NCBI GenBank assembly: GCA_051859245.1 | Contig: JBHYGA010000004.1 | Coordinates: 416,001 to 480,000 of the forward strand | Length of the DNA stretch: 64,000 nucleotides | Reading direction: 5' to 3' | Source: Gemmatimonadaceae bacterium | Lineage (GTDB): Bacteria; Gemmatimonadota; Gemmatimonadetes; Gemmatimonadales; Gemmatimonadaceae | Part shown: one piece after another, positions 8,927 through 27,096 of the stretch | Layout: each line of letters opens with the position of its first letter | How positions within the stretch are numbered: the stretch's first letter is position 1 | The notes under the pieces: model-generated | Database searches by the model: none | Told to the model about the DNA's origin: nothing | The model's input: the letters and a program-made list of their open reading frames with translations, nothing else | Made by a program: the position numbers and the translations under genes

Positions 8927-9106
8927 GCAGTCTCCAAGGTGGTACGGATCCGCGAGTCGGACGTCCGTTCGCTGGAAATACGGCTGAGCGGGCGAGATGC
9001 TGAATTGTGACGTGCGTCTCAGGCAACGTGCACCGCATCGGGTTGGGCGGAGTATTAGTTCTTCTATGATAGCGTCTGGCGTAACTTTTTCTTCTTTCCC
9101 TGCTGC

Positions 9107-9955
9107 ATGACCGCTGACAACGCGTTGTTGATTGCGCTTGGTCTGTTCGCGCTCGTGGGCAGCGGTGCCGCCGTGTACTGGTGGCTGAACCGTACGCCAT
9201 CAGGGTACCGACGAGATCGGGACGCTGAGCTGCCGCTGTTTTCGGTTTCGATGCCCGACTCGCGTCGCACGCCACCGCGTCCCGCCACGCCGCCGGCGGC
9301 CGCGCCAGTGGTGCCCAAGTCCGCCGGAAAGGCGCCTGAGACGCCGGTGGCTGTTCCTGCGGCGGCGGCGCCCAAGCCGGCGAAGAAAAGTTCGGAGCCG
9401 AACATTATTGAGATTTCGACCGCAACGGCCGCGGCGCCGGTTGCCACGCCGGTTGCCACACCGGTTGCACCGCCGGTCGCCACTCCAGTCGCCACGCCGC
9501 CTGCGGCGGCAGGAGTCACGAATCCCGCGCCCACGCCGGAGCCGGTTCTCGCCCACGGCGTGCCTGGATCCGTGGTCGAAGGGCATCTGTTGCGGTTCAG
9601 CGTGCCTCAGGAGGGCACGCTGCAGTTTCTGCCCGGACGTCTCGAAGTGTCGGGCGGTCTGGACGCCGGACGTGAGATCCGCTTTGTCCGCGTTCCTGGC
9701 CCGGATGGGACACAGGTCACATTTGGGCGTAGCGAAGGCCCGGCCTATCGCCACATTCAATTGCGCGAGGCCACGGTGAGCCGATTGCACGCCCGCCTCA
9801 CGCTGCGTGAGGGCACGTGGCATCTGACCAACCTCTCGTCGACCAACCCCGCCGTATATAACGGACGCATCTTGAACACCGGCGAAGAACAGCCGCTGTC
9901 CGATGGTGACCGGATCGAGATGGGCGAAGTACTTTTCGGTTTCCGTAGCCGATAA
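9107..9955 (+). CDS. Membrane-anchored FHA domain protein with Pro/Ala/Thr-rich linker
   Basis: N-terminal TM helix; C-terminal FGRS...VSRLHA...STN...LSDGDRIEMG. Confidence 0.9.
   Translation: MTADNALLIALGLFALVGSGAAVYWWLNRTPSGYRRDRDAELPLFSVSMPDSRRTPPRPATPPAAAPVVPKSAGKAPETPVAVPAAAAPKPAKKSSEPNIIEISTATAAAPVATPVATPVAPPVATPVATPPAAAGVTNPAPTPEPVLAHGVPGSVVEGHLLRFSVPQEGTLQFLPGRLEVSGGLDAGREIRFVRVPGPDGTQVTFGRSEGPAYRHIQLREATVSRLHARLTLREGTWHLTNLSSTNPAVYNGRILNTGEEQPLSDGDRIEMGEVLFGFRSR
9433..9498 (+). repeat. Degenerate 12-bp coding tandem repeat (PVAT) x5
   Basis: ccggttgccacg-like units encoding APVATPVATPVAPPVATPVATP. Confidence 0.8.
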
Positions 9956-9997
9956 TTCAGCGCGCCGCAGGGCGCCGAAGGGCAAGGACTCTGTGGG

Positions 9998-12649
9998 ATG
10001 ATCGACGCGTTCGACGACAGCGAGGTTGCAGACCTCGAAGACGAATACGAACTGCTGGGTGAGCTAGGGCGTGGTGCCAGCGCGATTGTATATCGCGCAC
10101 GCGACCGCGCCCTCGGTCGCCTCGTGGCTATTAAAGTCGTGCGCGCGCATTCCATCGCGTCTGCTGATGATGCGATGCTCCGACTGGCGCGTGAAGCACG
10201 CACCGTCGCCAAGCTGCAACATCCGAACATCGTCACCGTGCACGCGGTCAAGCGTTTGCGAACGGGTGGACTGGCGCTCGTGATGCAGCTCGTACCCGGT
10301 CGCACGCTCAAACAAGCCATCGTCGAGCACGGTCCGTTTGCGCCGGAACAGGCTGAACGCGTGCTGCACGATGTGGCCGAAGCGCTGGCCTATGCGCATG
10401 CGCACGGCGTCGTGCACCGCGATGTCAAACCGGAAAACATTTTTCTCGACGCGGACAGCGGCCGCGCGCTGCTCAGCGACTTTGGCATTGCACACAGTGC
10501 AGACAATGAATCGCGACTGACGATGACCGGCGCGGCCATTGGTACGCCCGCGTACATGGCGCCAGAGCAGATTGATGGCGCGCCTGCCGACGCGCGCTCG
10601 GACATTTACAGTCTCGGTCTTGTGATGTGGGAGATGCTCACGGGCAAACGTCCGTGGGACGGCGAATCGCTGTTCAATGTGATCTCCAAACAGAAGCAGG
10701 AAGACCTGCCGGCAATTGATGCGCTGCGACCGGGTGTTGTACCACCACGATTGCAGTACATCACCGAGCGCATGTTGCAGAAGCGCGCCGCCGCGCGCTG
10801 GGCCGGTGCGGACGGCTTGCTCGCGAATCTCGATCATTGGGTGGTGCCGAACGACTGGCGCCAATGGGAAGCGGCCCACAAACGCCGCCGCGAAGCCGCG
10901 CGCGCGATGCGTGCTGAACAGCGCGAAGCAAACGAGACGGCGTCGCCCTCAGACATGGCGACCATCCGGTTCCGTCGTGATGGGAGTACGCCCGGATCCA
11001 ATGTGCAGGTGATTGATCGCGGCGCGATGGTCACACCCGCGTCCGCGGCGTCGCTGGTACCGGAAGACGACAAGCCGTCGTGGGCTGTTGAACCAACCGC
11101 GCCGCCGCGCCGAGCGTGGCGCGCCGCCATGGTTGCCGCAATGCTCATCGCCGTCGGAACAGGCGCGGCGTGGTACGCCGACGCAACGGGCCGGATCAAC
11201 ATGCGCGCACTGATCGGTGGATCGGCAAGCAGCGCGACGCTCGCCAATGCGAACGCTGACGCGCGGTCAGGAGCCGCGCTAGTGACTGACACGCAAGTTG
11301 GAACGCTGAGTGATTCCACGTCCGTGCTCGGCGCCGTTGCGGCGGACTCGGTGGTGGCAGCCACCACGGGCAGCCCCACCGGGGTGGCGCCAAGCAGTGA
11401 TCAAGTGGGCGCAACGGCGGCACTCAATGGCGCAACGCCACCGCTGACCACTGATCGACAGCCGACAACGGCGGTGCCAATCGTGCCGCCGGAATCCGTA
11501 CCGCCGCGTGCGCGTCGTGCGGCACCCGTGGCGTCGCCGGCGCCGAGTGTCGCAACAGAATCCACACCCGCCGCCCCCGCGGTTCGCGCAACGGATGACG
11601 CGGGCGTGGTGAGCGCCGGCGGCCGACACAGTTGTGCACTCGCCAATGGACGCGCGCTGTGCTGGGGTGCAAACGACGCGGGACAGTTGGGCAACGGTGA
11701 CGTCGAATCGAGTGATGCACCGAGTGCCGTGGCTGGAGATCTTGAGTTTGTACAGATCGCGGCCGGACTGGCGCACACGTGCGGCGTCGCCCGCGGCGGC
11801 GATGCGTACTGCTGGGGCGCCGATGATCGCGGTCAACTGGGTGATGCCACTACAACGTCGCGCAGTGCGCCGGTGCGGGTGAACTCGAATCTGAATTTTC
11901 GCGTGGTGCGCAGCGGCTCCAATCACACCTGCGGACTGACCACGGGCGCACAAATCGCCTGCTGGGGCTTAAACACCATGGGTCAGGTCGGCGATGGTAC
12001 GTATGGTATGCGCACCTCACCGGTGCGCATCAACAGTGATCAGCGGTTTGTGTCGGTCTCCACCGGTTGGAATCACAGCTGCGCAATCGCGTACGACGGT
12101 TCGGCGTGGTGCTGGGGAGCAAACAACGACGGTCAGCTTGGCGACGGTACGCGCACCAATCAGAACGCGCCGCAGCGTGTGCAGTCGAGTTTGCGTTTTA
12201 CCAGCTTGTCAGCGGGAGGCGGACACACCTGCGGTGTGACGGAAGACGGCGCGCTGCATTGCTGGGGACGCAATGCGTTTGGACAGCTTGGTATTGGAAA
12301 TACAACATCGCAATCTGCGCCGGTGCGTGTGGAGAGCACCGCGCGATTCGCGTCCGTGAGCCTGGGCGGTGTGCATAGCTGTGCGCGCACCACCAGTGGT
12401 CAGGCGTGGTGCTGGGGCCTCAACACGTACGGACAACTCGGCGACGGAAGCATGGTCAACCGATCGTCTCCGGTCCGGGTGATTGGCGTGAGCAACTTTG
12501 CCGTGATCAACGCAACGGGTGCGCACACTTGCGGCACCACGACTGACGGCTCGGTGTCGTGTTGGGGATTCAATGTGCAGGGACAGCTTGGTGATGGCAC
12601 TCGAAACCATCTGGCACGTCCGACTCGCGTAGCGATTCCGGGGCGCTAA
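9998..12649 (+). CDS. Hanks-type Ser/Thr kinase - TM - linker - 7 RCC1/BLIP-II repeats
   Basis: LGRGASAIVY, VAIK, HRDVKPEN, DFG, GTPAYMAPE; hydrophobic AAMVAAMLIAVGTGAAWY; seven H[ST]C...CWG.[ND]..GQ[LV]G repeats. Confidence 0.95.
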   Translation: MIDAFDDSEVADLEDEYELLGELGRGASAIVYRARDRALGRLVAIKVVRAHSIASADDAMLRLAREARTVAKLQHPNIVTVHAVKRLRTGGLALVMQLVPGRTLKQAIVEHGPFAPEQAERVLHDVAEALAYAHAHGVVHRDVKPENIFLDADSGRALLSDFGIAHSADNESRLTMTGAAIGTPAYMAPEQIDGAPADARSDIYSLGLVMWEMLTGKRPWDGESLFNVISKQKQEDLPAIDALRPGVVPPRLQYITERMLQKRAAARWAGADGLLANLDHWVVPNDWRQWEAAHKRRREAARAMRAEQREANETASPSDMATIRFRRDGSTPGSNVQVIDRGAMVTPASAASLVPEDDKPSWAVEPTAPPRRAWRAAMVAAMLIAVGTGAAWYADATGRINMRALIGGSASSATLANANADARSGAALVTDTQVGTLSDSTSVLGAVAADSVVAATTGSPTGVAPSSDQVGATAALNGATPPLTTDRQPTTAVPIVPPESVPPRARRAAPVASPAPSVATESTPAAPAVRATDDAGVVSAGGRHSCALANGRALCWGANDAGQLGNGDVESSDAPSAVAGDLEFVQIAAGLAHTCGVARGGDAYCWGADDRGQLGDATTTSRSAPVRVNSNLNFRVVRSGSNHTCGLTTGAQIACWGLNTMGQVGDGTYGMRTSPVRINSDQRFVSVSTGWNHSCAIAYDGSAWCWGANNDGQLGDGTRTNQNAPQRVQSSLRFTSLSAGGGHTCGVTEDGALHCWGRNAFGQLGIGNTTSQSAPVRVESTARFASVSLGGVHSCARTTSGQAWCWGLNTYGQLGDGSMVNRSSPVRVIGVSNFAVINATGAHTCGTTTDGSVSCWGFNVQGQLGDGTRNHLARPTRVAIPGR

Positions 12650-12650
12650 G

Positions 12651-15600
12651 GTGTCTCGTCGTAGTCGATCACAGGGTGCGCTCCTGTGGATGCGCGCTGT
12701 ATTGACGGCCATGATGGTGTTGTCGAGTAGTGCGTGTGTGCGCATGGGCGACATCAGCGGACCGACGCCAGTTGGCGGGATCGTGGAAACGATCACGCTG
12801 TCATCAACAGACGTCACGCTTGGTGTGGGTTCGACGGTCACACTGCAAGCGGTGGCGCGCGACCGAGATGGCGAAACGATCAGCGACCGTGTGGTCACGT
12901 GGTCATCGAGCGACAGCACGATTGTGCGCGTGACATCGGCGGGTGTTCTGACCGGCGTTTCGAACGGCACGGCGCAGGTTGCCGTATCGATTGCCGGACA
13001 AAGCGCACTGGCGCAGGTGCGCGTGATTCCGCGTCCTGTCAGCACGATTGAACTTGGCCCGCTCGCGCCGCGAATTCTGGTGGGCGGTTTTGTGCAACTG
13101 GTTGCGTTACCGCGTGACGAAACGGGCGCGCCGTTGCCCGAACGCACGGTGTTCTGGTCGAGCAGCGATGTGGCCGTTGCAACGGTAGATGCGGCCGGTT
13201 TTGTGAGCGGACTCTCACCGGGCGCCACAACGATCACGGCACGCAGCGAGTCGCGTGAGGCAGCGGTTGGTGTCACGGTCAGCGCGGTGCCGGTGCGATC
13301 GGTGCTCGTGTCGCCGCGTGTTGACACAATTGTTGTGGGGCAGAGCACACAGCTGACAGCGATCGCTCGCGATTCCAATACCGTGCCGTTGGTTGATCGA
13401 GTGTTCGCGTGGCGCTCGGAGAATCTTGGTAGGGCGACCGTATCGGCAACGGGGTTGGTGCTAGGTGTTTCGCCGGGCACGGTGACAATTGTTGCGCAGA
13501 CTGATGATGTGGTCGGGACGGCGACTGTCGTTGTACAGCCGAGACCAATTGGCGCCGTGATCGTTTCGCCCGCGCAGGCGTCGTTGTCCGTAGGTACGAC
13601 TGTCAGCGTGACCGTGCAGATCACCGATGCCAACGGCAATCTGTTGACCGGCCGACCGATCAGCTTTTCCAGCGAGAACACATCAATTGCGACGGTGACG
13701 AACGCTGGTGTTGTCCGAGCGGTGGCTGTTGGCACCACGAACATTCGTGCCACGAGCGAAGGACAAACTGGCGTGATGAGTGTGACGGTCACACCAACGC
13801 CGGTGGCATCAGTGCGCATTGCGCCGCTCAACTCATCGTTGACGGTAGGTGATAGTGTGCGTCTCACTGCGTCAGCGCTCGACGACGCGGGCAGCGTGCT
13901 CTCGCAGCGTCCTGCGACGTGGACCAGCGGTGCGCCGAGTGTGCTGTCGGTGTCGAGCACGGGACTGGTGCGCGCGCTGAGTGCGGGCACGGGTTTGGTG
14001 TTCGCCGTGATCGATGGACGTGTTGCATCGGCCACGATTGTGGTGGCCGCGGTGCCGGTTGGTGAGGTGGTGGTCACACCGGCCACGGCGAATGTGGTGG
14101 TGAACACGACGCTCGATCTCACGGCCGTGGCGCGTGACGCGAGTGGGGTGTTGATCAACAAACCGGTCGTGTGGTCAAGCGCGGATCCGCTGATCGCGCT
14201 CGTGTCGAGCACCGGTCGTGTACGTGGCGTGGCTGTGGGCACAGCACGAATCGAGGCGACCGTCGATGGTCAGACGGGCACGAGTACGATCACCGTGGTG
14301 CCCGTTCCTGTTGCCAGTGTGGCACTCACGCTCACCGATTCATCGCTGAACGTTGGACAAACCGCGCAGGGCGCGGTGGTGTTGCGCGATGCCGCGGGAA
14401 ATATTCTGACCGGTCGTCCCATCACGTGGACAAGCAGCGCGCCGTTGGTGGCAACGGTAAATGCATCGGGGTTGGTGACGGCCGTGAACGGCGGTGCGGC
14501 TAACATCACGGCCACCAGTGGTACGGTGTCGGCTTCGGTCAACGTAGTCGTGTCCGCCGTTGTTGGTTCGCTGTCCGTGCAAACGCAGCCAGCCGGTGCG
14601 GTGAGCGGCAGCGTGTTTACCACGCAGCCGGTCGTGCGCATTCTCGATGCAAACGGGAACCTGGTCGCCACAGGGCCGAGCTCTGTGCTTCCAGTCACCG
14701 TTACACGCGCATCCGGATCCGCCTCGCTCGGCGGCACGACCACCGTGACGGCCGTGAATGGCGTGGCCACGTTCACCAACCTGGCGTTCACAGGTGCCGG
14801 CATTGGGGCGCATACGTTGCGATTCTCCACCGTATCGCCGGCGCTTGAGGTGACCTCTGCGTCATTCAATGTGGCGCCCGGTGCGGCAACGACGTTGACA
14901 GCTGTCTCGAGTCTGAGTCAGAGTGCGGCGGCGGGTGCGCTGGTGAGTGCGCCCCCCAGCGTGCGTGTGTCGGACGCGAGTGGAAATCCTGTGAGTGGTG
15001 TGAGCGTGACGTTTGCGGTGATCAGTGGTGGCGGGACCATTACACCCGCCAGCACGGCAACGGTCGTCACGAATGCGAGTGGTGTGGCGGCGCTCACGCA
15101 GTGGCGACTCGGCACCATTGCAGGTGCGAACAGCGTACGCGCAACGGCGGCCGGACTCACGGGCAGTCCTATCACGTTCAGCGCGACGGGCACGGTTGGT
15201 ACACCAACGCAGCTGGCCGTACTCACGCAACCGGCCGGTGCGATCAGTGGTCGCGCGCTCACCACGCAACCTGTGGTCGAGATTCGCGACGCGGCGGGAA
15301 ATCGTGTCACCGGTGCGAGCGATGCCGTGACGGTATCCGTTGCGACTGGCAGTGGTGATGTGGCGGGCACCGTGACCGTGAATGCGGTGAACGGTGTGGC
15401 GACCTTTACCAATGTTCGTATTGATGGCGCCGGTGCCCACACCCTGCGATTTGCGGCAGCAGGTTTGACCTCGGCGACTTCGGCGTCAATCACGGTGACG
15501 CAGGTTCCCGTAGCCCTGTCGATCTTCACGCAGCCCGCCGGGGCCGTGAGCAGCGCAACGTTTACCACACAACCAGTTGTTCGCATTCTTGACGACGCTG

Positions 15601-18600: not shown

Positions 18601-21600
18601 CGCCCGCGCTGAGTGTGACGTCGGCGAACTTCAATGTGAGTGCTGGACCGGCTTCTTCGATCGCTGCGGTTTCCAGCACCGCACAGAGTGCACCTGCGGG
18701 ATCGACGGTGAGCGCACCGCCGAGTGTGCGTGTGGCGGATAGCAACAACAATCCGGTGAGCGGTGTGGCCGTCACGTTTGCTGTGGCGAGTGGCGGCGGA
18801 TCGATTGTGCCGGGCGATGGTGCAGTCAGTACGAACGCGAGTGGAATTGCCACGCTCACGTCGTGGACCCTTGGGGCGGCACCGGGTGCGAACTCAGTAA
18901 CAGCGACGGCCGCGGGACTTGTTGGAAGTCCGGTGGCGTTTAACGCGACGGGAACAGCTGCCGCCGCAACGCAGCTGGGCATCACAACGCAGCCTGGCGG
19001 TGCGGTGAGTGGCGTGAATCTGACAACGCAGCCGGTGGTTGAGGTGCGTGATGCCAACGGTGATCGTGTGACCACGTCAACGGCGGCGGTGACTGCCGTG
19101 ATTACCTCTGGTACCGGCGCGCTTGTCGGCACGGCTACCGTAAACGCCGTCGCTGGTGTGGCGACCTTTACAACATTGCGTGTGAACGGCAGTGGTGATC
19201 ATCAGCTGCAGTTCACTGCGGCTGGGCTTACGGCGGCGAGCTCGAATACGTTCGCTGTGACTCAGGTGCCGGCATCGCTTTCGGTATTGACACAGCCGAG
19301 CGGTGCGGTGAGCGGTACGGCGTTCACTACGCAGCCGGTAGTGCGGATTCTTGACAACGCGGGCCTGGTTGTCGTGAGTGGAAGTGGAGCCACGCTCAAT
19401 GTGTCAGCGGCGCGCATGGCGGGCACGGCCACGCTGAGCGGTGTGCTCACCATTGCGGCGGCAAATGGTGTCGCCACGTTTACGAATCTGGCGTTCACCG
19501 GCACTGGTGTTGGCGCGCACTCCATAGACTTTACGACCAGTGCGCCAGCGCTGACTGTGACGTCGGCGAACTTTACCGTGAGCGCAGGTGCGGCCGCGAC
19601 GATTGCGTCTGCATCAAGTGTTGCACAAAACGCACCCGCCGGATCACCGGTTGCGGCGCCGCCGAGTGTGCGCGTGGCGGATAGCAACAACAATCCGGTG
19701 AGTGGTGTGGCCGTGACGTTTGCGGTGGCAAGTGGTGGCGGATCCATTGTGCCGGGCGATGGTGCGGTCAGTACAAATGCGAGTGGCATTGCGACGCTCA
19801 CGTCGTGGACGCTTGGTGCGGCGCCGGGGGCAAACTCGGTGACAGCGACCGCGGCGGGGTTGGTGGGCAGTCCGGTCACGTTCAATGCGACCGGAACGGC
19901 TGGGGCAGCGACGCAGCTTGGTATCACGACGCAGCCTGGCGGCTCAGTGAGTGGCGTGAATCTCACGACGCAGCCAGTGGTGGAAGTACGTGATGCGAAT
20001 GGTGATCGTGTGGCGACGTCAACGGCGGCGGTGACGGCGACGATTACGTCGGGAACTGGTGCGCTGGTTGGCACGCAGACTGTGAACGCTGTAGCCGGTG
20101 TCGCGACGTTCACCAATCTGCGAGTGAACGGCGGCGGTGATCATCAGTTGCAGTTCACCGCGGCCGGACTCACCGCAGCCACGTCCAATACCTTTGCGGT
20201 GACACAGGTGCCGGCTTCGTTGTCCGTGCAAACGCAGCCGAATGGCGCGGTGAATGGCGTGGCGTTCACCACGCAGCCGGTTGTGCGCATTCTGGACAAC
20301 GCAGGTCTTGTGGTGACGACTGGTTCGGGCGCAACACTTGATGTTGTGGCCGCACGCGCAACTGGCACGGCCAACCTCAGCGGGACGGTGACCAAAGCCG
20401 CGGTGGCGGGTGTCGCGACATTCGACAACCTTGTGCTTACGGGGACGGCTGGCGCGCACACGCTGTCATTCACCACCGCTGCACCAGCGCTGAATGTTTC
20501 CTCGGCGAGCTTCACGCTGGCTGCAGGGAGTGCGGCGAGCATCGCGGCAACGTCGAGCACTTCGCAGTCAGCAACTGCCGGAACTAATGTATCGGCCGCG
20601 CCCACCGTGCGAGTGGCGGATGCGAACAACAATCCGGTGGCCGGCGTGAATGTCACGTTTGCAGTGGCGAGTGGTGGCGGATCGATTGTGCCGGGTGACG
20701 GTGCGGCGAGCACGAATGCGAGTGGCATTGCTACGCTGACGTCGTGGACGCTTGGTGCGACGCCAGGGGCAAACTCGGTGACAGCGACGGCGGCGGGGTT
20801 AGCGGGCAGTCCCATCACGTTCAACGCCACGGGTGACCCACTGCCCGCAACACAGCTCGCTGTACTCACGCAGCCAGCCGGTGCCGTGAGTGGTGTTGCG
20901 TTCACCACACAACCGGTGATCGAAGTGCGTGATGCGAATGGCAATCGGGTCACATCATCCACGGTAGCGGTGACCGCCACGCGCACGGATGGTAATGGCG
21001 TCATCGCTGGTACCACCACCGTGAACGCCGTCGCCGGCGTGGCAACGTTTACCAACCTGCAGCTCAATGGAAGCGGCTCCAACACATTGCAGTTCACATC
21101 CGGTGCGTTGACGGCGGCGAACTCCAACGCGTTTACTGTCACGCAAGTCGCCGCGTCACTTGCAATACAGTCGCAGCCAACAACAGCGGTGAGCGGAAGC
21201 GCGTTGTCGCCTCAGCCTGTGATTCACATTCTTGATAACGCGGGATTGCTGGTGGTAACTGGCTCGGGTGCAACACTGACCGTGGAGGCCACACGTGTCG
21301 CGGGCACGGCGAACCTGGGCGGCACGCTGACTGCAGTCGCGGCTGGAGGCATCGCGTCGTTCAGCAACGTGTCAATTACCGGTGTTGGCACAGGCACGCA
21401 CACAATTCAGTTCAGTACGTCGGCACCGGCGCTTGCCGTGACGTCAGGCAACATTGCAGTCAGTGCGGGCGTGGCAACAACAATCGCCGCCGTCTCTGCC
21501 GCGCCGCAAAATGCACCGGTTGGCACGAACGTAGCGGTTGCACCCAGCGTGCGCGTGACCGACGCCAACGGCAATCCGGTGGCCGGCGTGAACGTCACGT

Positions 21601-21872
21601 TCACCCTCACTGGCGGTAGTGGCAGCATAAATCCTCAGAGCGCAGCCGTGATCGCGACCAACGTCAGTGGCATTGCGGCGCTCACGAGCTGGACAGTCGG
21701 CGCGGCACCTGGCGCAAACACCGTGGAAGCGACCGCCGCTGGTCTCGCCGGTTCGCCCGTGGTGTTCACCGCGAACGGCACGGCGCTTGAACCGCTGGCC
21801 GTTGTGCGCGCACTGAGTAACGCGCCGAGCAACGCACTCCCGCGTACCATGCAGCGCACGGTGGAGCGATGA
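12651..21872 (+). CDS. Giant (3073 aa) Ig-like repeat surface lipoprotein/adhesin
   Basis: Signal peptide with SSAC; 7 Big_2-like domains (WSSS...ATV...G.V); then a repeated three-domain Ig module including Big_1/invasin-like NPVSGV.VTF...TNASG.A. Confidence 0.9.
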   Translation: MSRRSRSQGALLWMRAVLTAMMVLSSSACVRMGDISGPTPVGGIVETITLSSTDVTLGVGSTVTLQAVARDRDGETISDRVVTWSSSDSTIVRVTSAGVLTGVSNGTAQVAVSIAGQSALAQVRVIPRPVSTIELGPLAPRILVGGFVQLVALPRDETGAPLPERTVFWSSSDVAVATVDAAGFVSGLSPGATTITARSESREAAVGVTVSAVPVRSVLVSPRVDTIVVGQSTQLTAIARDSNTVPLVDRVFAWRSENLGRATVSATGLVLGVSPGTVTIVAQTDDVVGTATVVVQPRPIGAVIVSPAQASLSVGTTVSVTVQITDANGNLLTGRPISFSSENTSIATVTNAGVVRAVAVGTTNIRATSEGQTGVMSVTVTPTPVASVRIAPLNSSLTVGDSVRLTASALDDAGSVLSQRPATWTSGAPSVLSVSSTGLVRALSAGTGLVFAVIDGRVASATIVVAAVPVGEVVVTPATANVVVNTTLDLTAVARDASGVLINKPVVWSSADPLIALVSSTGRVRGVAVGTARIEATVDGQTGTSTITVVPVPVASVALTLTDSSLNVGQTAQGAVVLRDAAGNILTGRPITWTSSAPLVATVNASGLVTAVNGGAANITATSGTVSASVNVVVSAVVGSLSVQTQPAGAVSGSVFTTQPVVRILDANGNLVATGPSSVLPVTVTRASGSASLGGTTTVTAVNGVATFTNLAFTGAGIGAHTLRFSTVSPALEVTSASFNVAPGAATTLTAVSSLSQSAAAGALVSAPPSVRVSDASGNPVSGVSVTFAVISGGGTITPASTATVVTNASGVAALTQWRLGTIAGANSVRATAAGLTGSPITFSATGTVGTPTQLAVLTQPAGAISGRALTTQPVVEIRDAAGNRVTGASDAVTVSVATGSGDVAGTVTVNAVNGVATFTNVRIDGAGAHTLRFAAAGLTSATSASITVTQVPVALSIFTQPAGAVSSATFTTQPVVRILDDAGLVVTTGSGSSLTVAASVASGTGTLGGTASVNAVNGVATFSNLSLTGSGAHTLRFSTTSPALAVVSGSLSVGVGAPATIAAVSAVSQSATVLTAVAAAPSVRVTDAVGNPVSGVTVTFAVTAGGGVIAPANGVVNTNASGVATLTSWTLGATPGANSVTGSATGLSGSPVVFNATATVGAATDLAITTQPSGATSGVPFTTQPVVEIRDAQGNRVAGATNAVTAEIANGSGALAGTITVNAVNGIATFTNARVNGAGPHRIRFVASGLSSATSGNFVVSQRAAALNISAQPAGSVSGAALTTQPVVQVLDDAGLVVTTGSDATVTVATSIATGTGTLGGTTSVNAASGVATFTNLAISGSGAHTLQFSVAARSLTVVSQSIVVGAPPATTIAANSSVSQSAPVNSNVAAPPSVRVTDANSNPVSGVNVTFTVTAGGGTTNPASGAVVATNASGIASLTSWTLGASPGANTVTATAAGLSGSPVIFNSTGVALGATQLAIVTQPTGAVSGVSLVTQPVIEVRDANGVLVASSTAPVTATLASGSGALAGTVTVNAVNGVATFSNLRINGSGAHTVQFASPGLTSTTSNVVNVTQVAASLSVQTQPGGAVSGSVFTQQPVVRILDNAGLVVTSGSGASLNVTATRVAGTATLSGVTTVQAVNGVATFSNLAFGGTGVGAHSLDFATGTPALNVVSANFNVSAGPAANIGANSSVAQSAPAGSNVAAAPSVRVSDSNNNPVAGVNVTFAVTAGGGTTNPASGDVVATNASGVAALTSWTLGAAPGANTVTATVAGLIGSPVAFNATGTAAAATQLGVTTQPSGAVSGVNLTTQPVVEVRDANGDRVTTSTAAITATISSGNGVLIGTATVNAVAGVATFTNLRVNGSGDQQLQFASAGLTAVTSNTFAVAQVPASLSVFTQPSGAVSGAAFTTQPVVRILDNAGLVVVSGSGATLNVSAARMAGTATLGGVTTIVAVNGVATFTDLSFGGAGIGTHSLDFTTVAPALSVTSANFNVSAGPASSIAAVSSTAQSAPAGSTVSAPPSVRVADSNNNPVSGVAVTFAVASGGGSIVPGDGAVSTNASGIATLTSWTLGAAPGANSVTATAAGLVGSPVAFNATGTAAAATQLGITTQPGGAVSGVNLTTQPVVEVRDANGDRVTTSTAAVTAVITSGTGALVGTATVNAVAGVATFTTLRVNGSGDHQLQFTAAGLTAASSNTFAVTQVPASLSVLTQPSGAVSGTAFTTQPVVRILDNAGLVVVSGSGATLNVSAARMAGTATLSGVLTIAAANGVATFTNLAFTGTGVGAHSIDFTTSAPALTVTSANFTVSAGAAATIASASSVAQNAPAGSPVAAPPSVRVADSNNNPVSGVAVTFAVASGGGSIVPGDGAVSTNASGIATLTSWTLGAAPGANSVTATAAGLVGSPVTFNATGTAGAATQLGITTQPGGSVSGVNLTTQPVVEVRDANGDRVATSTAAVTATITSGTGALVGTQTVNAVAGVATFTNLRVNGGGDHQLQFTAAGLTAATSNTFAVTQVPASLSVQTQPNGAVNGVAFTTQPVVRILDNAGLVVTTGSGATLDVVAARATGTANLSGTVTKAAVAGVATFDNLVLTGTAGAHTLSFTTAAPALNVSSASFTLAAGSAASIAATSSTSQSATAGTNVSAAPTVRVADANNNPVAGVNVTFAVASGGGSIVPGDGAASTNASGIATLTSWTLGATPGANSVTATAAGLAGSPITFNATGDPLPATQLAVLTQPAGAVSGVAFTTQPVIEVRDANGNRVTSSTVAVTATRTDGNGVIAGTTTVNAVAGVATFTNLQLNGSGSNTLQFTSGALTAANSNAFTVTQVAASLAIQSQPTTAVSGSALSPQPVIHILDNAGLLVVTGSGATLTVEATRVAGTANLGGTLTAVAAGGIASFSNVSITGVGTGTHTIQFSTSAPALAVTSGNIAVSAGVATTIAAVSAAPQNAPVGTNVAVAPSVRVTDANGNPVAGVNVTFTLTGGSGSINPQSAAVIATNVSGIAALTSWTVGAAPGANTVEATAAGLAGSPVVFTANGTALEPLAVVRALSNAPSNALPRTMQRTVER
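14563..21790 (+). repeat. About 940-bp (about 313-aa) tandem module, 7 full copies plus one partial
   Basis: NPV[SA]GV motif recurs 8 times at roughly 940-bp spacing (near 14985, 15925, 16860, 17805, 18750, 19690, 20630, 21575). Boundaries approximate. Confidence 0.88.
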
Positions 21873-23533
21873 GTATGGATCAAACTGCAACACGCCCCCT
21901 CGTGGAACGCACGTTCACCCAATGCGGTCGCGCGCTTCGCTCCGTGTGCAGCGCCATGTTCGCCTTCACACTCGCCGCGTGCTCCGCCAGTGTGACGGAC
22001 ACGCCACAAGTCGCGCAGGTGCAGCTCACACCGCCCTCCGCCAGCGTTGAAGCCGGACGTACCCTGGTCTTGGTCGCACGTCCAACAGATGCCAGCGGCG
22101 CGGCGATCACCGCACGACAGATCACCTGGTCGAGCAACAACACGCAAGTTGCCACCGTGTCTGCGGCTGGTGTGGTGTCGGCGCGCGCCACTGGTCAGGC
22201 GCGCATCGCCGCGAGTGTTGACGGACAGAGTGCGGTGACCACGATTACGGTCACGGCGCGCGAAGTGGCAAGTGTGCAAGTCGCGCCGGTATCCGTCTCT
22301 GTGCGCGTGAATCGTACCGCACAGGTGAGTGCCAGCGCGCTCGATGCAGACGGTGTGGCGCTTCCTGGCAAAACGTTCGTGTGGAGCAGCAGCAATACGG
22401 CCGTCGCAACGATCACGCAGGCCGGCGTGATCACGGCTGTTGCGCCTGGTGCGGCAACAATCACGGCCACATCCGATGGTCGCAGCGGTCAGGCCGCCGT
22501 AACCGTGACACCGGAACCTGTCGCGTCGGTGACGATTGCGCCCACGCGCGATACGCTCGCTGTTGGCACGGATCGCACGTTCGTTGCGACCGTGCGCGAT
22601 GAAAGTGGCGCGGCGCTCACGGGTCGCACCGTGGTGTGGAATGTGAGTGATCCCGCAATCGCGACGGTGTCATCAACCGGTGTTGTTACGGCACGTGCTC
22701 CAGGCACAGTGACCGTCGTTGCCGTGAGTGAAAACCGTGTGGGCCAGGCCACGCTGGTGGTGCTGCAACGTCTCGCCAACGCGGTCATCCTCACGCCGTC
22801 GTCTGCCACGCTCGAAACAGGCGCCACACTGCAGCTTGTCACGCAAGTGACCGATCCCTCGGGCAATCTGATTCCAGGTCGCGTGGTGACGTACACGAGC
22901 AACAACACTGCGGCCGCAACAGTGAGCAACGCCGGGTTGGTGACCGCGCGTGCTCCGGGTGTGGCACGCATTACCGCAACCAGCGATGGTCGATCGAGCG
23001 TTGCAACAATCACGGTGATTGCGGTGCCGGTGAGTACCGTGCAGGTGTCACCACTCACCAACGACGTGCTGACCGGGTCAACTGTTCCGCTTACCGTGCA
23101 GGTACGTTCTGCCACGGGCACACTGCTCACGGGGCGTACCGTCACGTGGACGAGTGGTGCACCGAGCGTGGCCACGGTATCGGCAAGCGGTGTCGTATCG
23201 GCTGTCTCACCGGGTGTGGTTGTGATCGCCGCGACGGTTGATGGCATTAGCGGATTTGCCACCGTGACCGTGCGTGCACCAACGGTCGCCGCTGTTGTGA
23301 TCACGCCGAATGCGCCGTCACTCGCGGTCGACGCGCGTGTGTTGCTTTCGGCATCCGTGCGCGACAGTAACGGCAACGTGCTCACCGGACGCGCCGTCAC
23401 GTGGCGCAGCAGCAATGAACAAGTCGCCTTTGTGTCGAGTACCGGCACAGTGATCGCCATCAGCGCCGGAACGGCAACCATTACGGCGACCTCGGAGGGA
23501 GTCAGTGCTTCGATTCTTGTCACAGTTCGCTAA
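21869..23533 (+). CDS. Lipoprotein with six Big_2 Ig-like domains
   Basis: Lipobox LAAC; six ~85-aa repeats; ATGA overlap with the giant gene's stop. Confidence 0.9.
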   Translation: MSMDQTATRPLVERTFTQCGRALRSVCSAMFAFTLAACSASVTDTPQVAQVQLTPPSASVEAGRTLVLVARPTDASGAAITARQITWSSNNTQVATVSAAGVVSARATGQARIAASVDGQSAVTTITVTAREVASVQVAPVSVSVRVNRTAQVSASALDADGVALPGKTFVWSSSNTAVATITQAGVITAVAPGAATITATSDGRSGQAAVTVTPEPVASVTIAPTRDTLAVGTDRTFVATVRDESGAALTGRTVVWNVSDPAIATVSSTGVVTARAPGTVTVVAVSENRVGQATLVVLQRLANAVILTPSSATLETGATLQLVTQVTDPSGNLIPGRVVTYTSNNTAAATVSNAGLVTARAPGVARITATSDGRSSVATITVIAVPVSTVQVSPLTNDVLTGSTVPLTVQVRSATGTLLTGRTVTWTSGAPSVATVSASGVVSAVSPGVVVIAATVDGISGFATVTVRAPTVAAVVITPNAPSLAVDARVLLSASVRDSNGNVLTGRAVTWRSSNEQVAFVSSTGTVIAISAGTATITATSEGVSASILVTVR

Positions 23534-24626
23534 GCGCAGTGCGCTCGGCGCTTTGCTCGCGATGTCCGTCAGCGTGCCGCTGCATTCAGCGCACGCGCAG
23601 TTGCTGCGCCCGAAACGCACACTCACGGCCGGTGCGGCACCGGGGTGCGAACTTGCGCCTGCTGCCGTTGATAACAACGCGCCGCGCAACAACGCCGAAG
23701 CGCGGCGATTGGCGGCCGCCGCACAGGAAGCCGCGTTGCAGGGTGATCAGGTCGCTGCTCGCGCCGCGTATGTGCGCGCCGCGCAGCTCAATCCGGCTGA
23801 TGAACGTCTCACGTACGACCTCGCACGCGCGCACGAAGAACTGTCGGACACACTGCCAGCAATCGGTGCGTACTGTCGTTACCTCGCGCTTGCACCCAAT
23901 GGCACCGAAGCGAGTGATGTGCGCAATCGTCTGCGCACCCTGGTGCCGAACGACGCGCGTCAGCGTGCCGAAGACGCGGGCATCGCGTTCCGGCTCGGAC
24001 TTGGTTACATGGACTCGCAGAACTACAACGCGGCCGTGCGCGCGTTTGACGAAGTGGTGCGACTCTCTCCCGCGGCACCGGAAGGACATTTCAATCGTGG
24101 ACTCGCACGCTCTGCGGTTGGCGCGAGAGCGGGCGCGTTGTCCGATCTCGAGACGTATCGCGCGGGTGCGAGCACGGTAGAAGAGCGCGTGGAAACGGCG
24201 CGCGCGATTGATGTGCTGCGTCGTCCGGTGTATTCACCAACCACGGCGCTACTGCGCAGTGCGTTGCCAGGATTTGGACAGTTCTATACGGCGCGGCCGG
24301 TGCGCGGTGTAGTGGTGCTCGCGGCCGTGGCCGGTGCACTTGGCGCCGCGCTCACGCAGCAAACCACGGAAACCGTGATCAATTACGTTGACCCGAACGG
24401 ATTTCCGGCGCCGTACACGGAAACCACCACCGAGCGAAAGTTTTTCGTGCCTGGTGTGGCGGCGGCAGCTGGCGTGACGGTGATCGCCGCGATCGAAGCG
24501 GTATGGTACGCGAATCGCTCGCAGCGGGGCACGTCAATTCTTGATCGATCGGGTGGTGTGTCGGTTACGCCCACGATCTCGCGTGATGGCCGCTTTGGCC
24601 TCGCGCTTCGCGCGCCGCTATTCTAG
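23505..24626 (+). CDS. Exported TPR protein with C-terminal PGxGQFY (DUF5683-like) hydrophobic region
   Basis: GGAGGGAG RBS before GTG; signal peptide ending AHA-Q; TPR-like helices (YCRYLALAP, AFDEVVRLSP, HFNRGLAR); LPGFGQFY plus two hydrophobic segments. Confidence 0.8.
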   Translation: MLRFLSQFAKRSALGALLAMSVSVPLHSAHAQLLRPKRTLTAGAAPGCELAPAAVDNNAPRNNAEARRLAAAAQEAALQGDQVAARAAYVRAAQLNPADERLTYDLARAHEELSDTLPAIGAYCRYLALAPNGTEASDVRNRLRTLVPNDARQRAEDAGIAFRLGLGYMDSQNYNAAVRAFDEVVRLSPAAPEGHFNRGLARSAVGARAGALSDLETYRAGASTVEERVETARAIDVLRRPVYSPTTALLRSALPGFGQFYTARPVRGVVVLAAVAGALGAALTQQTTETVINYVDPNGFPAPYTETTTERKFFVPGVAAAAGVTVIAAIEAVWYANRSQRGTSILDRSGGVSVTPTISRDGRFGLALRAPLF

Positions 24627-24677
24627 TTCGACCGTTCCACATCGATCGCCGTTTCTCCTCTCCCTCCCCGCACCCGC

Positions 24678-25706
24678 ATGCGTCTCACGGTTCTCCTCGG
24701 CGGTGTTTCGGCCGAACGCGACGTCTCGTTGTCTACCGGCCTGCGCATGGCCGCCGCGCTGCGCGAGGTCGGGCATGAGGTGACTTGTTTTGACCCCGCG
24801 TTTGGTGTGCTGGGCGCGGAGACGGAGCGGTCACTGCTGGCGGCTGGCGTGGGCTCAAAGCCGCCGGCGCTGGCCGAACTGGCCGAGCTGCGGCACCGGT
24901 CGCTTTCAGCGGACTGGGTATCGCATTCCGCCATCCGGAATGCAGAATGTATCGTGATCGGACTGCACGGCGGTCAGGGGGAAGACGGCACGGTACAGGC
25001 GGCGCTTGATCTGGCTGGCGTTCCATATACTGGAAGTGGGCACATGGCCAGCGCGCTCTCGATGGACAAACATCTGAGCAAGATTGTGCTGCGCTTTGCC
25101 GGGGTGCCCACGGCCGACTGGATCATGGCGCCGCCACTTGGCGATGCACCGCTCGATCCGGCGCTGGTTACCGAGCAGGTGGGCTGGCCGGCCGTGGTCA
25201 AACCGTCCAGACAAGGCAGCACGGTTGGCCTGAGCATCGTAAACGGCCCCGAGGAGCTGCAAGCAGCGATCGAAGAGGCGTACAGATTCGATGATGCCGT
25301 GATGGTGGAGCGATTCGTCGCCGGTCGGGAGTTCACGGTGGGCATTCTGGGCGACGAAGCCTTGCCGGTGATCGAGATCGTGCCGGCCAAAGCGCTCTAC
25401 GATTACGAGTGCAAGTACACGCCCGGCATGGCGCAGGAGTTTGTGGCGGATCTGCCGGCGGAAACGGTGGAGCGTATCACCGCGTATTCCTTGCAGGCGT
25501 TTGGTGCGTGTGGACTGAGCGGCTACGGTCGGGTGGATTTTCGCATGGACCCTGACGGTGGCCTCTGGTGTCTGGAACTCAACACGTTGCCGGGGATGAC
25601 GCCTACCAGTCTCATTCCACAGGCTGCAGCGGCGGCGGATCTATTGTTTCCGGCGCTCTGCAACCGCATCGTGGAGTTGGCCCTCGCGTCACGGCGGCGC
25701 GGGTAA
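24678..25706 (+). CDS. ddl: D-alanine--D-alanine ligase
   Basis: GGVSAERDVSL, LHGGQGEDG, KPSRQGSTVG, YDYECKY, ELNTLPGMT. Confidence 0.96.
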   Translation: MRLTVLLGGVSAERDVSLSTGLRMAAALREVGHEVTCFDPAFGVLGAETERSLLAAGVGSKPPALAELAELRHRSLSADWVSHSAIRNAECIVIGLHGGQGEDGTVQAALDLAGVPYTGSGHMASALSMDKHLSKIVLRFAGVPTADWIMAPPLGDAPLDPALVTEQVGWPAVVKPSRQGSTVGLSIVNGPEELQAAIEEAYRFDDAVMVERFVAGREFTVGILGDEALPVIEIVPAKALYDYECKYTPGMAQEFVADLPAETVERITAYSLQAFGACGLSGYGRVDFRMDPDGGLWCLELNTLPGMTPTSLIPQAAAAADLLFPALCNRIVELALASRRRG

Positions 25707-25734
25707 ACCCACGCGCACGCGCCCTCCCCCGATC

Positions 25735-26664: not shown

Positions 26665-26709
26665 GCGCGAGGCTCGGTGACAGCAGTGGAGCGCTCACCG
26701 AGCGATCCA

Positions 26710-26934
26710 TTAGACAGGATCACTAACTGGTCGCCGTTCCCGGTCCGCAGCGAAGGCGTACACGGCGCGAAAGTCTTCGCGTTCGAGATCGGGAAACTCT
26801 ACCAGAATCTCCGCTTCGGACATGCCTGCAGCCAGGTACGACAGCACGTCATCGACGGTGATGCGCAGTCCGCGGATGCAAGGTTTTCCGCTTCGCTTCC
26901 CAGGCTCAATGGTGATGCGATCCGCAATACTCAT
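26710..26934 (-). CDS. DUF433 domain protein (putative antitoxin)
   Basis: RITIEPGKRSGKPCIRGLRITVDDVL...FPDLEREDF; start trimmed to MSIADR. Confidence 0.9.
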   Translation of the reverse strand: MSIADRITIEPGKRSGKPCIRGLRITVDDVLSYLAAGMSEAEILVEFPDLEREDFRAVYAFAADRERRPVSDPV

Positions 26935-27096
26935 AACTTGAGTGTAGGCGGTCCTATTGGCGCCGGTAAGTATGTCACGAAGGTAGCCGAGTACATGGCA
27001 TTCGCTTTCCTTGCCATATTTGCCCCCGCGTGCGAAGCTCGATAAGATCTGCGGTAATCGGACGACCATCAAGATGGGGACGGCAACGGAGGAGCG

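Follow-up and report, generated by a model that had tools for sequence, protein, structure and literature searches.

Five co-directional genes in the window analysed here, a stretch of 64,000 nt from a Gemmatimonadaceae bacterium, probably form an undescribed cell-envelope sensing unit. Judging from the sequence, the chances are about even that they represent an envelope signalling module restricted to one lineage, the Gemmatimonadota and mainly the family Gemmatimonadaceae, in which a TPR protein would serve as the hub for Ig lipoproteins and an RCC1-kinase, and an FHA protein as the relay.

Gene organization of the locus

All five genes are located on the plus strand. A gene for an FHA protein of 282 aa (9107..9955) is followed by those for a Hanks-type Ser/Thr receptor kinase with an RCC1 domain (883 aa, 9998..12649), a giant Ig-repeat lipoprotein (3073 aa, 12651..21872), a second lipoprotein with Big_2 domains (554 aa, 21869..23533), and a TPR/hairpin membrane protein (373 aa, 23505..24626). 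The successive spacings are 42 nt, 1 nt, a 4-nt overlap and a 29-nt overlap, of which the 1-nt gap and the 29-nt overlap rest on GTG starts; the GTG start of the giant protein is supported by its orthologues, which share its long, positively charged N-terminus. This layout and the domains of the five proteins had been proposed in the original prediction, and were borne out by the ORF coordinates and Pfam. Pfam scans found no ATPase or transporter within the module, and no outer-membrane component is encoded there. The module of the window also has no PP2C gene, while the Longimicrobiales version has one.

Receptor kinase and FHA protein

The kinase domain (aa 17-268, nt 10046-10801; Pkinase PF00069, 1.1e-51, above cut-off) shows the Pkinase fold with the VAIK Lys, HRD, DFG and APE motifs of the Hanks-type family. 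The residues K46, H140-R141-D142, N147, D161-F162-G163, P189-E190, D202 and R267 are present and conserved among 24 aligned orthologues, with those from K46 to P189-E190 being invariant or at least 90% conserved, and the kinase therefore looks catalytically competent. A juxtamembrane motif, T322-I-R-F-R-R (nt 10961-10978), is conserved in the same alignment, its T322 at 90% or above. Further downstream, a single TM helix recognised by hydrophobicity (~aa 376-396, nt 11123-11185) and a low-complexity linker lead to a seven-bladed RCC1-type propeller (aa 535-883, nt 11600-12646), which is matched by RCC1 PF00415 in seven stretches (4.2e-68) and by WD40_RLD PF25390 (1.1e-97, above cut-off). Sequence matches in the PDB include UVR8 (3.7e-55), the ACR4 ectodomain (4.7e-13) and BLIP-II (6e-8), as well as HERC2 and RCC1, and agree with Pfam on seven RCC1 repeats making one propeller. 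Each blade carries two cysteines, and all 14 are kept in 24/24 sequences. Thus, the catalytic motifs, the one TM helix and the seven-repeat propeller predicted for the kinase were confirmed by the sequence, Pfam and the orthologue alignment. The genome encodes 37 Hanks kinases in all.

The FHA protein begins with a TM helix (aa ~6-26) that is kept in the 22 aligned orthologues, continues with a Pro/Ala-rich linker that varies in length, and ends in an extended FHA domain (aa ~151-282, nt 9557-9952; FHA PF00498, 6e-14 at aa 204-273, above cut-off). The domain has the fold of the family together with its conserved Gly-Arg, Ser-x-x-His and Asn residues, and its motifs G-R (T-F-G-R), S-R-x-H (T-V-S-R-x-H) and T-N-P, which we take to be the pThr-binding residues, are kept in 22/22 orthologues. 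The FHA domain therefore looks ligand competent, and no effector domain was found in the protein.

Ig-repeat lipoproteins and TPR protein

The giant protein starts with a signal peptide and lipobox Cys29 (SSAC29; nt 12651-12737), followed by seven Big_2 domains (nt ~12783-14570, seven Pfam stretches). Its C-terminal 2,430 aa consist of seven full super-repeats of ~314 aa (nt 14571-21158), each with three invasin/FdeC-like Ig domains, and a partial eighth unit. Pfam detects Big_1 in eight stretches, autocorrelation peaks at 314 aa, and the units are 60-79% identical in DNA. AlphaFold2 modelled one unit as three beta-sandwiches (pLDDT 92.4), for which the best Foldseek matches were FdeC (TMq 0.56), InvD, invasin and S-layer proteins. 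The 554-aa lipoprotein, whose signal peptide ends at a lipobox-like LAAC38, has Big_2 in six stretches (6.5e-68), matches the Big_2 domains of LigA in the PDB (1.7e-10), and is paralogous to the N-terminal region of the giant protein, with 39% identity across 529 aa (E 5e-101). The lipobox Cys is invariant in 20 lipoprotein orthologues, and a Big_2 domain stands directly after the predicted lipidated Cys in every lipoprotein examined. Lipoprotein length varies across loci from 297 to 3693 aa, and the repeat number differs strongly between species; the giant filament is not what is conserved in the module.

The TPR protein starts with a signal peptide that looks cleavable (aa 1-32), followed by TPR helices assigned by Pfam TPR families (aa 63-239, nt 23691-24221) and two long hydrophobic helices forming a C-terminal hairpin (aa 265-283 and 314-341, nt 24297-24527). 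Cys48, Cys124 and the motif PGFGQFYTARPVRG are conserved among 25 aligned orthologues. The AlphaFold2 model (pLDDT 88.9), which cannot confirm membrane topology, places a short beta-hairpin after each hydrophobic helix, giving four short strands in all, and Foldseek returned generic TPR proteins only. If the signal peptide is cleaved, the loop between the two helices would be cytoplasmic and the tail periplasmic. Longer TPR-hairpin paralogues (679-705 aa) carry a Big_1-like domain and adjoin Big_2 genes in 3/3 cases examined.

Distribution and variation of the module

Loci were found via the TPR protein or the kinase, so that the following counts are conditional on the presence of one part. 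Within the genus of the window, FHA and kinase are kept in 11/11 loci, an Ig-lipoprotein gene lies directly 3' of the kinase in 10/11, and the TPR gene is present in all five loci whose contig extends far enough. In other genera of Gemmatimonadaceae, kinase, RCC1, Big_2 lipoprotein(s) and TPR are encoded on one strand in 17/17 untruncated loci, and FHA in 16 of these, the exception (L032) having none upstream. The complete set is thus found in 14 genera of the family, the window's own included, with unrelated flanks, and the synteny check across genomes was positive. The gene ddl always lies 3' of the module in the window's genus, and only there are ddl and a rhomboid gene its neighbours. Moreover, three loci (L015, L038 and L108) have a permuted gene order with the clustering kept. 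The gene set is not a chance neighbourhood.

An independent pattern scan of 185,579 species genomes gave 73 loci, and in 68 of them TPR was matched at E<=1e-8. The record titles name Gemmatimonadota in nearly every case; one is labelled Kuenenia and two 'uncultured bacterium'. Among the 30 loci having a full-length TPR orthologue and at least 8 kb upstream, 19 have kinase, RCC1 and Big_2 in that stretch, 16 of these with FHA as well, and in four more the giant-type repeats occupy the entire flank; L107 is without any partner, and L096 and L097 have only some. Of 69 genomes sampled from the family, only 26 had a TPR match at E<=1e-8, and the module is therefore dispensable.

Several natural variants lack one part or another. 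Loci L073 and L078 have FHA, kinase and TPR without a lipoprotein, while L043, L044, L045 and L047, from other families of the class and making up 4/6 class-level loci, pair TPR with an Ig-lipoprotein and have no kinase within 20 kb. In L046, a Big_1+RCC1 protein without kinase adjoins TPR and a Big_2/fn3 protein, and one Big_2+RCC1 protein is encoded in the window's own genome. The Longimicrobiales locus L113 has FHA, PP2C, kinase and then TPR, and its kinase ectodomain carries Invasin_D3/Big_1 domains ahead of the RCC1 propeller. The genus-mate L017 keeps FHA and kinase but has lost the lipoproteins and the TPR gene, which indicates that the kinase pair is able to persist alone. Compared with the window, its propeller is 49.6% and its kinase domain 79.5% identical, a ratio of 0.62 that is the lowest of 23 orthologues (the rest 0.73-1.04) in a single loss case confounded by phylogeny. 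For distance matrices of 20 related taxa, RCC1 and the TPR domain were the best-correlated pair (r 0.907; partial r 0.68 when controlled for the kinase domain), which is weak evidence, confounded by phylogeny. The TPR/two-helix protein is the partner common to every sub-combination with kinase or Ig-lipoproteins.

The original prediction of a complete module accordingly stands as regards the conserved gene unit and the competent-looking kinase/FHA pair. It does not stand in making a very long surface filament the defining part, because the lipoproteins range so widely in length and are absent in L073 and L078 and lost in L017; the common part is the TPR protein instead.

Proposed function and alternatives

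From the parts, their conservation and their co-occurrence, all observed in the genomes, we infer the topology, physical contacts, signalling direction and phospho-sites as follows. The helical hairpin at the C-terminus of the TPR protein would hold it in the inner membrane and leave the TPR domain in the periplasm, where the protein may act as a hub associating with one or more lipid-anchored Ig-repeat proteins that are variable in number, length and Ig type. The hub may also contact the presumably disulfide-stapled RCC1 propeller, which would be held into the periplasm on the long flexible linker of the kinase. A periplasmic location is supported by the 14 invariant propeller cysteines, the two cysteines of the TPR protein, the signal peptides and the lipoboxes. 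An altered assembly state of TPR protein and lipoproteins (presence, load, conformation or contact) would change the activity of the kinase, which might phosphorylate its own activation loop (T175/T177) and the juxtamembrane T322 (T-[IV]-R-F-R-R). The membrane-anchored FHA protein could then dock on pThr through its FHA domain, be phosphorylated, or both. The TPR adaptor would signal to the kinase whether or not an Ig lipoprotein is tethered alongside.

A sharper version, which seems improbable to us, is a self-contained outside-in sensor, in which the TPR adaptor would let the stapled propeller read the mechanical state or the occupancy of a lipid-anchored Ig filament with up to ~30 domains, and the FHA protein would be the first cytoplasmic relay. 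If true, bacteria would have a counterpart of receptor-kinase signalling coupled to adhesion, and of CRINKLY4 in plants, the ligand of which is, to our knowledge, still not known. Read as adhesion-coupled outside-in signalling, the original prediction would make the giant lipoprotein a filamentous adhesin at the surface, with the kinase responding to contact with it or tension along it. This reading draws on the ~30 tandem Ig domains with their invasin/FdeC/S-layer-like fold, the adhesin-like variation of repeat number between species, and the kinase gene lying immediately upstream of the giant lipoprotein gene. However, filament length is unconserved, some module copies have no lipoprotein, the module encodes no outer-membrane component, and surface exposure of lipoproteins in this phylum is putative; the adhesin explanation is a doubtful one.

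Control might also run inside-out, with the TPR/hairpin protein handling the Ig lipoproteins (retention, sorting, anchoring or surface delivery) and the kinase/FHA pair regulating or checkpointing their assembly from the cytoplasm rather than sensing an external cue. The kinase-free TPR and Ig-lipoprotein pairs, the TPR paralogues adjoining Big_2 genes and the Big_2 domain right behind each lipidated Cys agree with this, as do the TPR domains that adjoin lipoprotein cargo in Slam and pilotin-type proteins and the weak, sub-cut-off NCBIfam matches of the TPR protein to PilW, NlpI and SycD-type TPR proteins. It is nevertheless rather unlikely in our view, as the TPR protein would be cargo-less in L073 and L078, the module is without ATPase or transporter, and the modelled membrane part, two helices and no beta-barrel, makes outer-membrane translocation by the TPR protein alone unlikely. 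Linkage that outlasts full flank replacement in 14 genera, on the other hand, renders unlikely a chance pairing of two unrelated units, namely a general-purpose kinase/FHA pair (e.g., for cell-wall synthesis or division control like PknB/FhaA/FhaB) and a variable surface Ig cassette with its TPR partner. That explanation could appeal to L017, where ddl and a rhomboid gene follow FHA and kinase directly and the cassette is missing, to the constant position of ddl next after the module in the window's genus, and to NCBIfam, in which the PknB-type model is the one nearest to the kinase domain (284.6 bits, cut-off 450) and the FHA protein has a weak match to FhaB/FipA (27 bits, cut-off 125). Yet the ddl/rhomboid adjacency is limited to that genus, the genes stay together where their order is permuted, Ig domains are fused within the kinase ectodomain of L113, and the propeller has diverged disproportionately where the cassette was lost.

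Many environmental bacteria have large numbers of Hanks kinases, yet for very few of these is it known what the ectodomain senses. The module provides a kinase whose candidate partners in the periplasm are unusually explicit and are conserved across a phylum that has been little studied, and the natural variants without lipoprotein, TPR or kinase, or with fused parts, already sketch its wiring and could guide experiments. With it comes a defined family of membrane proteins of TPR/hairpin type travelling with Ig-repeat lipoproteins, and it offers a compact bacterial genetic system to ask what a cysteine-stapled RCC1/crinkly-type propeller binds.

Comparison with known systems

The lipoproteins of the module resemble Leptospira LigA/LigB in having tandem Big_2 domains after a lipobox; the lipobox-like Cys29 and Cys38, followed by seven and six Big_2 stretches, represent a match of architecture and not proof of orthology, with lipidation being predicted. 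As in invasin, intimin and FdeC, the Big_1/invasin-like Ig domains may form an extended stalk, judging by fold. Unlike these adhesins, the giant protein has neither an inverse-autotransporter beta-barrel nor a C-terminal lectin or adhesive tip domain, its stalk is a 3-domain super-repeat in 7.7 copies, and its host is free-living; an adhesin role is putative. An invasin/intimin inverse autotransporter was rejected because the protein starts with a lipoprotein signal peptide and then Big_2 domains, and Pfam found no barrel family in it. Slam proteins join a periplasmic TPR domain to an outer-membrane beta-barrel (DUF560). A Slam-type translocator was likewise rejected for the TPR protein, whose model contains TPR helices, two hydrophobic helices and four short strands with no barrel, and which has no DUF560 match in Pfam.

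In Mycobacterium tuberculosis, PknD is a receptor Hanks kinase with an NHL beta-propeller sensor, and PknB works with FhaA and FhaB (FipA). FHA proteins read pThr made by kinases, and FhaB/FipA is small with one membrane helix. The module similarly combines a receptor Hanks kinase having an extracytoplasmic sensor with an FHA protein having one membrane helix. However, its propeller belongs to a different family from that of PknD, its NCBIfam scores are all far under cut-off, no PASTA domain is present, and it also encodes a dedicated TPR protein and Ig lipoproteins.

According to the accessible parts of the literature, CRINKLY4/ACR4 is a single-pass receptor kinase with an extracellular seven-bladed RCC1-related propeller and one disulfide per blade (bioRxiv 10.1101/2020.08.10.245050; PMC4617170). 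To that extent, the module kinase is alike, with seven blades, two Cys per blade in C-G-[VL] ... C-W-G sub-motifs, and predicted disulfides. The order is reversed, with the kinase N-terminal and the propeller C-terminal, no TNFR-like cysteine-rich domain lies behind the propeller, and the propeller is far closer to ordinary RCC1/UVR8 than to ACR4; in addition, this kinase belongs to a bacterium and is paired with an FHA protein.

The T6SS threonine phosphorylation pathway (PpkA/PppA/Fha/TagQRST) was considered for the module and rejected, as a scan of 23 ORFs (window 43-37701) showed no T6SS family and the FHA protein scored 36.5 bits against the TagH model (cut-off 120). As far as the accessible text describes it, TagQ/TagR-PpkA-Fha1 is the threonine phosphorylation pathway of the Pseudomonas aeruginosa H1-T6SS, in which the periplasmic domain of a membrane-spanning Hanks kinase is acted on by a membrane lipoprotein together with a partner from the periplasm, and the kinase has an FHA protein as its substrate or partner, all encoded by clustered genes (PMC13713981). 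The original prediction knew of no characterised system with this layout; within the limits of that source, the claim fails in kind, given this analogue, and holds for the parts. Genes for a lipoprotein, a putative periplasmic partner, a membrane Hanks kinase and an FHA protein likewise lie clustered in the Gemmatimonadaceae module. Its sensor domain, by contrast, is an RCC1 propeller, its candidate partner a TPR protein anchored by a helical hairpin, its lipoprotein a multi-Ig filament, and its FHA protein is membrane-anchored with no other domain. By analogy, the module resembles TagQ/TagR-PpkA-Fha1 in kind but is built from other parts.

Gene layout and neighbouring genes

The module comprises five forward-strand genes, encoding an FHA protein (9107-9955, +; Pfam FHA, 6e-14), a kinase-RCC1 protein (9998-12649, +; Pkinase, 1.1e-51; seven RCC1 repeats, 4.2e-68; RCC1-like domain, 1.1e-97), a giant protein of 3073 aa (12651-21872, +; seven Big_2 and eight Big_1 stretches), a second Ig protein of 554 aa (21869-23533, +; six Big_2 stretches) and a TPR protein (23505-24626, +; Pfam TPR families). 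The ORF coordinates agree with the co-directional arrangement of the original prediction, with gaps of 42 nt and 1 nt and overlaps of 4 nt and 29 nt, and its domain calls for all five genes were each borne out by Pfam. The source assembly is 4.70 Mb in 11 contigs and 99.87% complete, and the window lies on contig 4. Scans of 8700-28000 for promoters (0 sigma-70-like sites; mean of 3.0 in shuffles) and terminators (16 terminator-like sites; 17.6 in shuffles) were uninformative.

Upstream, the module is flanked by a divergent S9 peptidase gene (6260-8926, -), and downstream by a D-Ala-D-Ala ligase gene, ddl (24678-25706, +), and a rhomboid protease gene (25735-26664, +), all assigned by Pfam. 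The ddl/rhomboid pair (24678-26664, +; the rhomboid with a C-terminal DUF6576), encoded on the module's strand, starts after a gap of 51 nt and has 28 nt between its two genes; it neighbours the module in the window's genus only. Further along, a KaiC-family double ATPase gene (31437-32957, +; PF06745, 1.9e-69) shares 4 nt with the gene of a hybrid histidine kinase (32954-34612, +) that has HisKA, HATPase_c and Response_reg receiver domains; the two form a predicted two-component pair linked to KaiC, outside the cyanobacteria. No Pfam family at E<=0.001 was assigned to five ORFs (177-404 aa) with coding-like codon position bias (27097-27630, 27671-28801 and 29997-31211, +; 4253-4966, -; 5268-6203, +). 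In addition, a penicillin amidase family gene (1095-3359, +; 1.3e-119) adjoins a tandem universal stress protein gene (43-1125, -); both appear to be ordinary genes unrelated to the module.

FHA protein and kinase-propeller

In the translated FHA protein, basic residues come after an N-terminal membrane helix. This helix is kept in 22 of 22 orthologues, together with the G-R, S-R-x-H and T-N-P motifs, by which FHA domains bind pThr. Two tandem TM-FHA genes, not one, stand upstream of the kinase in some genera (locus L015:2058-3862, from genome G022, as well as L028 and L031).

The kinase had been described as carrying all catalytic motifs, one TM helix and a seven-repeat propeller, and this description holds: the catalytic residues vary little or not at all among 24 aligned orthologues, a single hydrophobic helix at about aa 376-396 of the translation separates the kinase domain from the propeller, and Pfam counts seven RCC1 repeats. 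At least 90% of these sequences, read as 23/24, keep T322 in the juxtamembrane motif T-[IV]-[RQ]-F-R-R-P, and the activation loop L-T-M-T-G is retained in most of the 24. Each propeller blade has two cysteines, in the contexts H-[ST]-C-[GA]-[VL] … C-W-G, and all 14 are present in 24/24 sequences. A PDB sequence search with the propeller recovered the ACR4 ectodomain (4.7e-13), while UVR8 was far closer (3.7e-55). Among the 120 homologues listed, most were multi-propeller RCC1 proteins and a kinase occurred only in close relatives, a sample that says little on kinase-RCC1 fusions in other phyla. The window's genome encodes 37 Hanks kinases, one of them with RCC1. The same genome also has two RCC1 proteins of another kind: one of 664 aa (C1:743377-745371, -) that joins Big_2 (aa ~23-304) to an RCC1 propeller (aa ~272-650) without a kinase domain, and a second, RCC1-only protein (C1:1230235-1231713).

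Ig lipoproteins and TPR/hairpin protein

Both Ig proteins begin with a signal peptide ending in a lipobox-like cysteine (Cys29 and Cys38 in translation), and they are paralogues with 39% identity over 529 aa (E 5e-101). Beyond its seven Big_2 domains, the giant protein continues for ~2,430 aa, over which the identity autocorrelation peaks at 314 aa; this stretch comprises seven full units and one partial. The units share 60-79% identity at the DNA level and are therefore diverged repeats, not an assembly artefact. Tandem Repeats Finder, limited to periods shorter than the 942 nt of these repeats, returned 0 rows for 12651-23533, and the repeats came from autocorrelation. An AlphaFold2 model of one super-repeat, from an alignment of the seven units, has a pLDDT of 92.4 and three tandem beta-sandwiches; among its best structural matches are E. 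coli adhesin FdeC (TMq 0.56), Yersinia InvD and invasin, SbsB and SbsC from S-layers, and the extender of an RTX adhesin. A PDB sequence search with one super-repeat gave 0 matches. From the Big_2 count, the super-repeats and the three-sandwich model, the giant protein is thus predicted to be a string of ~30 Ig-like domains on a putative lipid anchor.

In translation, a signal peptide (…AHA-Q) heads the TPR protein, whose C-terminal part contains two hydrophobic helices, and the orthologue alignment shows conserved Cys48, Cys124 and the motif P-G-x-G-Q-x-x-T-x-R-P. In its structural model (pLDDT 88.9), TPR helices occupy aa 63-239, followed by long helices at 265-283 and 314-341, each with a short hairpin behind it. 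Foldseek searches with this model found generic TPR proteins only, and nothing matched the hairpin part. The TPR-hairpin paralogues (679-705 aa) have a Big_1-like domain of their own, above the Pfam cut-off in one of three, and all three adjoin multi-Big_2 genes. Taken together, the cysteines, signal peptides and lipoboxes argue that the propeller, the TPR domain and the Ig proteins share the periplasm or the outer surface.

Distribution and conserved synteny

A pattern scan with the TPR-protein alignment over one genome per species (185,579 species) found 73 loci, nearly all titled Gemmatimonadaceae, Gemmatimonas, Gemmatimonadales or Gemmatimonadota, with a few Longimicrobiales, two labelled merely 'uncultured bacterium' and one contig filed under a Kuenenia MAG. 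The latter ('Candidatus Kuenenia stuttgartiensis', L078) matches the window's FHA at 74%, kinase at 79%, propeller at 60% and TPR protein at 49%; in all likelihood it comes from a Gemmatimonadaceae genome and was placed in the anammox MAG by binning. A cultured Roseisolibacter strain is also among the carriers of a TPR orthologue, which lies on a short contig (L082). In a 301-genome sample of the phylum, whose tallies count genome G021, the TPR protein is matched at E<=1e-8 in 63 genomes, including 26/69 in the window's family, and full-length matches are concentrated in this family and two others of the class.

Of 14 genus-mates, 11 have full-length kinase-propeller orthologues; the other three genomes are 64-84% complete. 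Within the genus, the arrangement of an S9 peptidase divergent from FHA and kinase is kept in 11/11 loci, and an Ig-lipoprotein gene stands right behind the kinase in 10/11; five of these, on contigs long enough, continue with the Big_2 protein, TPR and, where the stretch reaches, ddl, and in the other five the contig ends inside the Ig genes. The exception, L017, reads FHA, kinase, ddl and rhomboid, without an Ig or TPR gene; its ddl/rhomboid pair (L017:5451-7474) comes straight after the kinase. In another genus-mate, the S9 peptidase was matched only in three short pieces within ~1 kb (L018:465-1487; query aa 60-205, 396-510 and 650-737), which suggests internal deletion or decay.

Outside the window's genus, all 17 untruncated loci of the family have the kinase, RCC1, one or more Big_2 lipoproteins and TPR on one strand, and 16 have FHA too; in the remaining one (L032), no FHA was found upstream in a search to E 10. 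The order is sometimes Big_2, TPR, Big_2 (L015, L038). Conservation of synteny in Gemmatimonadota, proposed as a check on the module, was thus observed in 14 genera, the window's own included, and in the other genera the module lies between flanking genes that are not related to those of the window. In 55 of the 73 loci, the match to the TPR protein spans at least 280 aa, with at least 8 kb of upstream sequence in 30 of the 55. Among the 30, 19 have kinase, RCC1 and Big_2 (16 of them also FHA), four have FHA, kinase and RCC1 without a Big_2-type match, two are partial and one has none; in four more, giant-type repeats fill the whole flank, so that the kinase position is beyond reach. All these synteny counts are conditional on the part by which the locus was found.

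Module variants

The module also occurs in variant forms. L108 has the order TPR, lipoprotein (one Big_2 and seven Invasin_D3/Big_1), FHA and kinase, and L113, from Longimicrobiales, has TM-FHA, PP2C, kinase and TPR, with Invasin_D3/Big_1 domains ahead of the propeller in the kinase ectodomain. In other families of the class, Ig-type lipoproteins come after the TPR orthologue in L043, L044, L045 and L047, where 20 kb contain no kinase or RCC1 match. The TPR orthologue of these families may also be preceded by an RCC1 protein; in L041 this protein is truncated where the contig starts, and in L046 it carries a Big_1 domain without a kinase domain. A TPR-Big_2-fn3 fusion considered for L046 was rejected, since the TPR match is out of frame with the 858-aa ORF and two adjacent genes are therefore present. 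The kinase/propeller, the TPR-hairpin protein and the Ig lipoprotein are pairwise associated, and the TPR protein is the sole element found in both reduced forms of the module.

Interpretation of the module

The best-supported reading of these sequences is that a periplasmic input assembly, in which the TPR-hairpin protein stands alone or with tethered Ig lipoproteins, would be read by the kinase propeller, while the membrane-anchored FHA protein might serve as the proximal pThr reader or kinase substrate. The predicted pThr sites of the kinase are T175/T177 and T322. No transcription factor or enzyme is encoded in the module as a pathway output, and the five PP2C-type genes of the window's genome all lie outside it. 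The signal might also run inside-out, with the kinase controlling lipoprotein handling by the TPR protein, which we consider rather unlikely. The original prediction of a surface filament with an export or anchor factor, a receptor kinase and a pThr reader, serving adhesion or contact sensing, seems improbable; next to the adhesin matches of the super-repeat stand lipoproteins that range from 297 to 3693 aa at orthologous positions, always starting with a lipobox Cys and a Big_2 domain, and two loci (L073, L078) with FHA, kinase and TPR and nothing between.

Mere linkage, in which a general kinase/FHA pair happens to lie beside a surface-protein cassette, appears quite improbable. Coupling of the parts was examined indirectly. 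In L017, where the TPR and Ig genes are lost, the kinase domain is 79.5% and the propeller 49.6% identical to the window's, and the propeller/kinase identity ratio of 0.62 is, as a single case, the lowest of 23 orthologues (0.73 to 1.04 in the others); all 14 propeller cysteines remain. Among distance matrices for 20 taxa, propeller versus TPR domain gave the highest correlation (r 0.907; 0.817 for the propeller versus its own kinase domain), with a partial r of 0.68 given the kinase domain and 0/2000 permutations as high; this points only weakly to propeller-TPR coupling, given the kinship of the taxa and the rate regimes that periplasmic proteins may have in common. Complex prediction with lipoprotein aa 30-300, TPR aa 33-250 and propeller aa 520-883 as partner scored 0.83, 0.83 and 0.84, the propeller-replaced controls 0.00 and 0.00, and the lipoprotein-replaced control 0.88; in such a three-chain job the score may come from a kept chain, and it counts neither for nor against binding.

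Comparison with known systems

The two-Cys arrangement of the module's propeller blades, with a putative disulfide in each, is also described for the 'crinkly' repeats of plant CRINKLY4 kinases, in which every blade has a stabilising disulfide (bioRxiv 10.1101/2020.08.10.245050; PMC4617170). In the type VI secretion context, scanned ORFs of the window included no T6SS genes near the module, and scores far under the cut-offs were obtained with the NCBIfam models for TagH, FhaB and PknB. The complex of the lipoprotein TagQ and the periplasmic TagR is reported to act on PpkA, with Fha1 as PpkA's only target (PMC13713981). The original statement that no characterised system has this layout stands for the gene set itself, of which no description was found in open-access papers and bioRxiv, but not for its kind. 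Although conserved, clearly delimited and amenable to experiment, the gene set is not categorically new: like TagQ/TagR-PpkA-Fha1, the module would combine a periplasmic input, a membrane kinase and an FHA protein, with homology between the two limited to the kinase and FHA folds.
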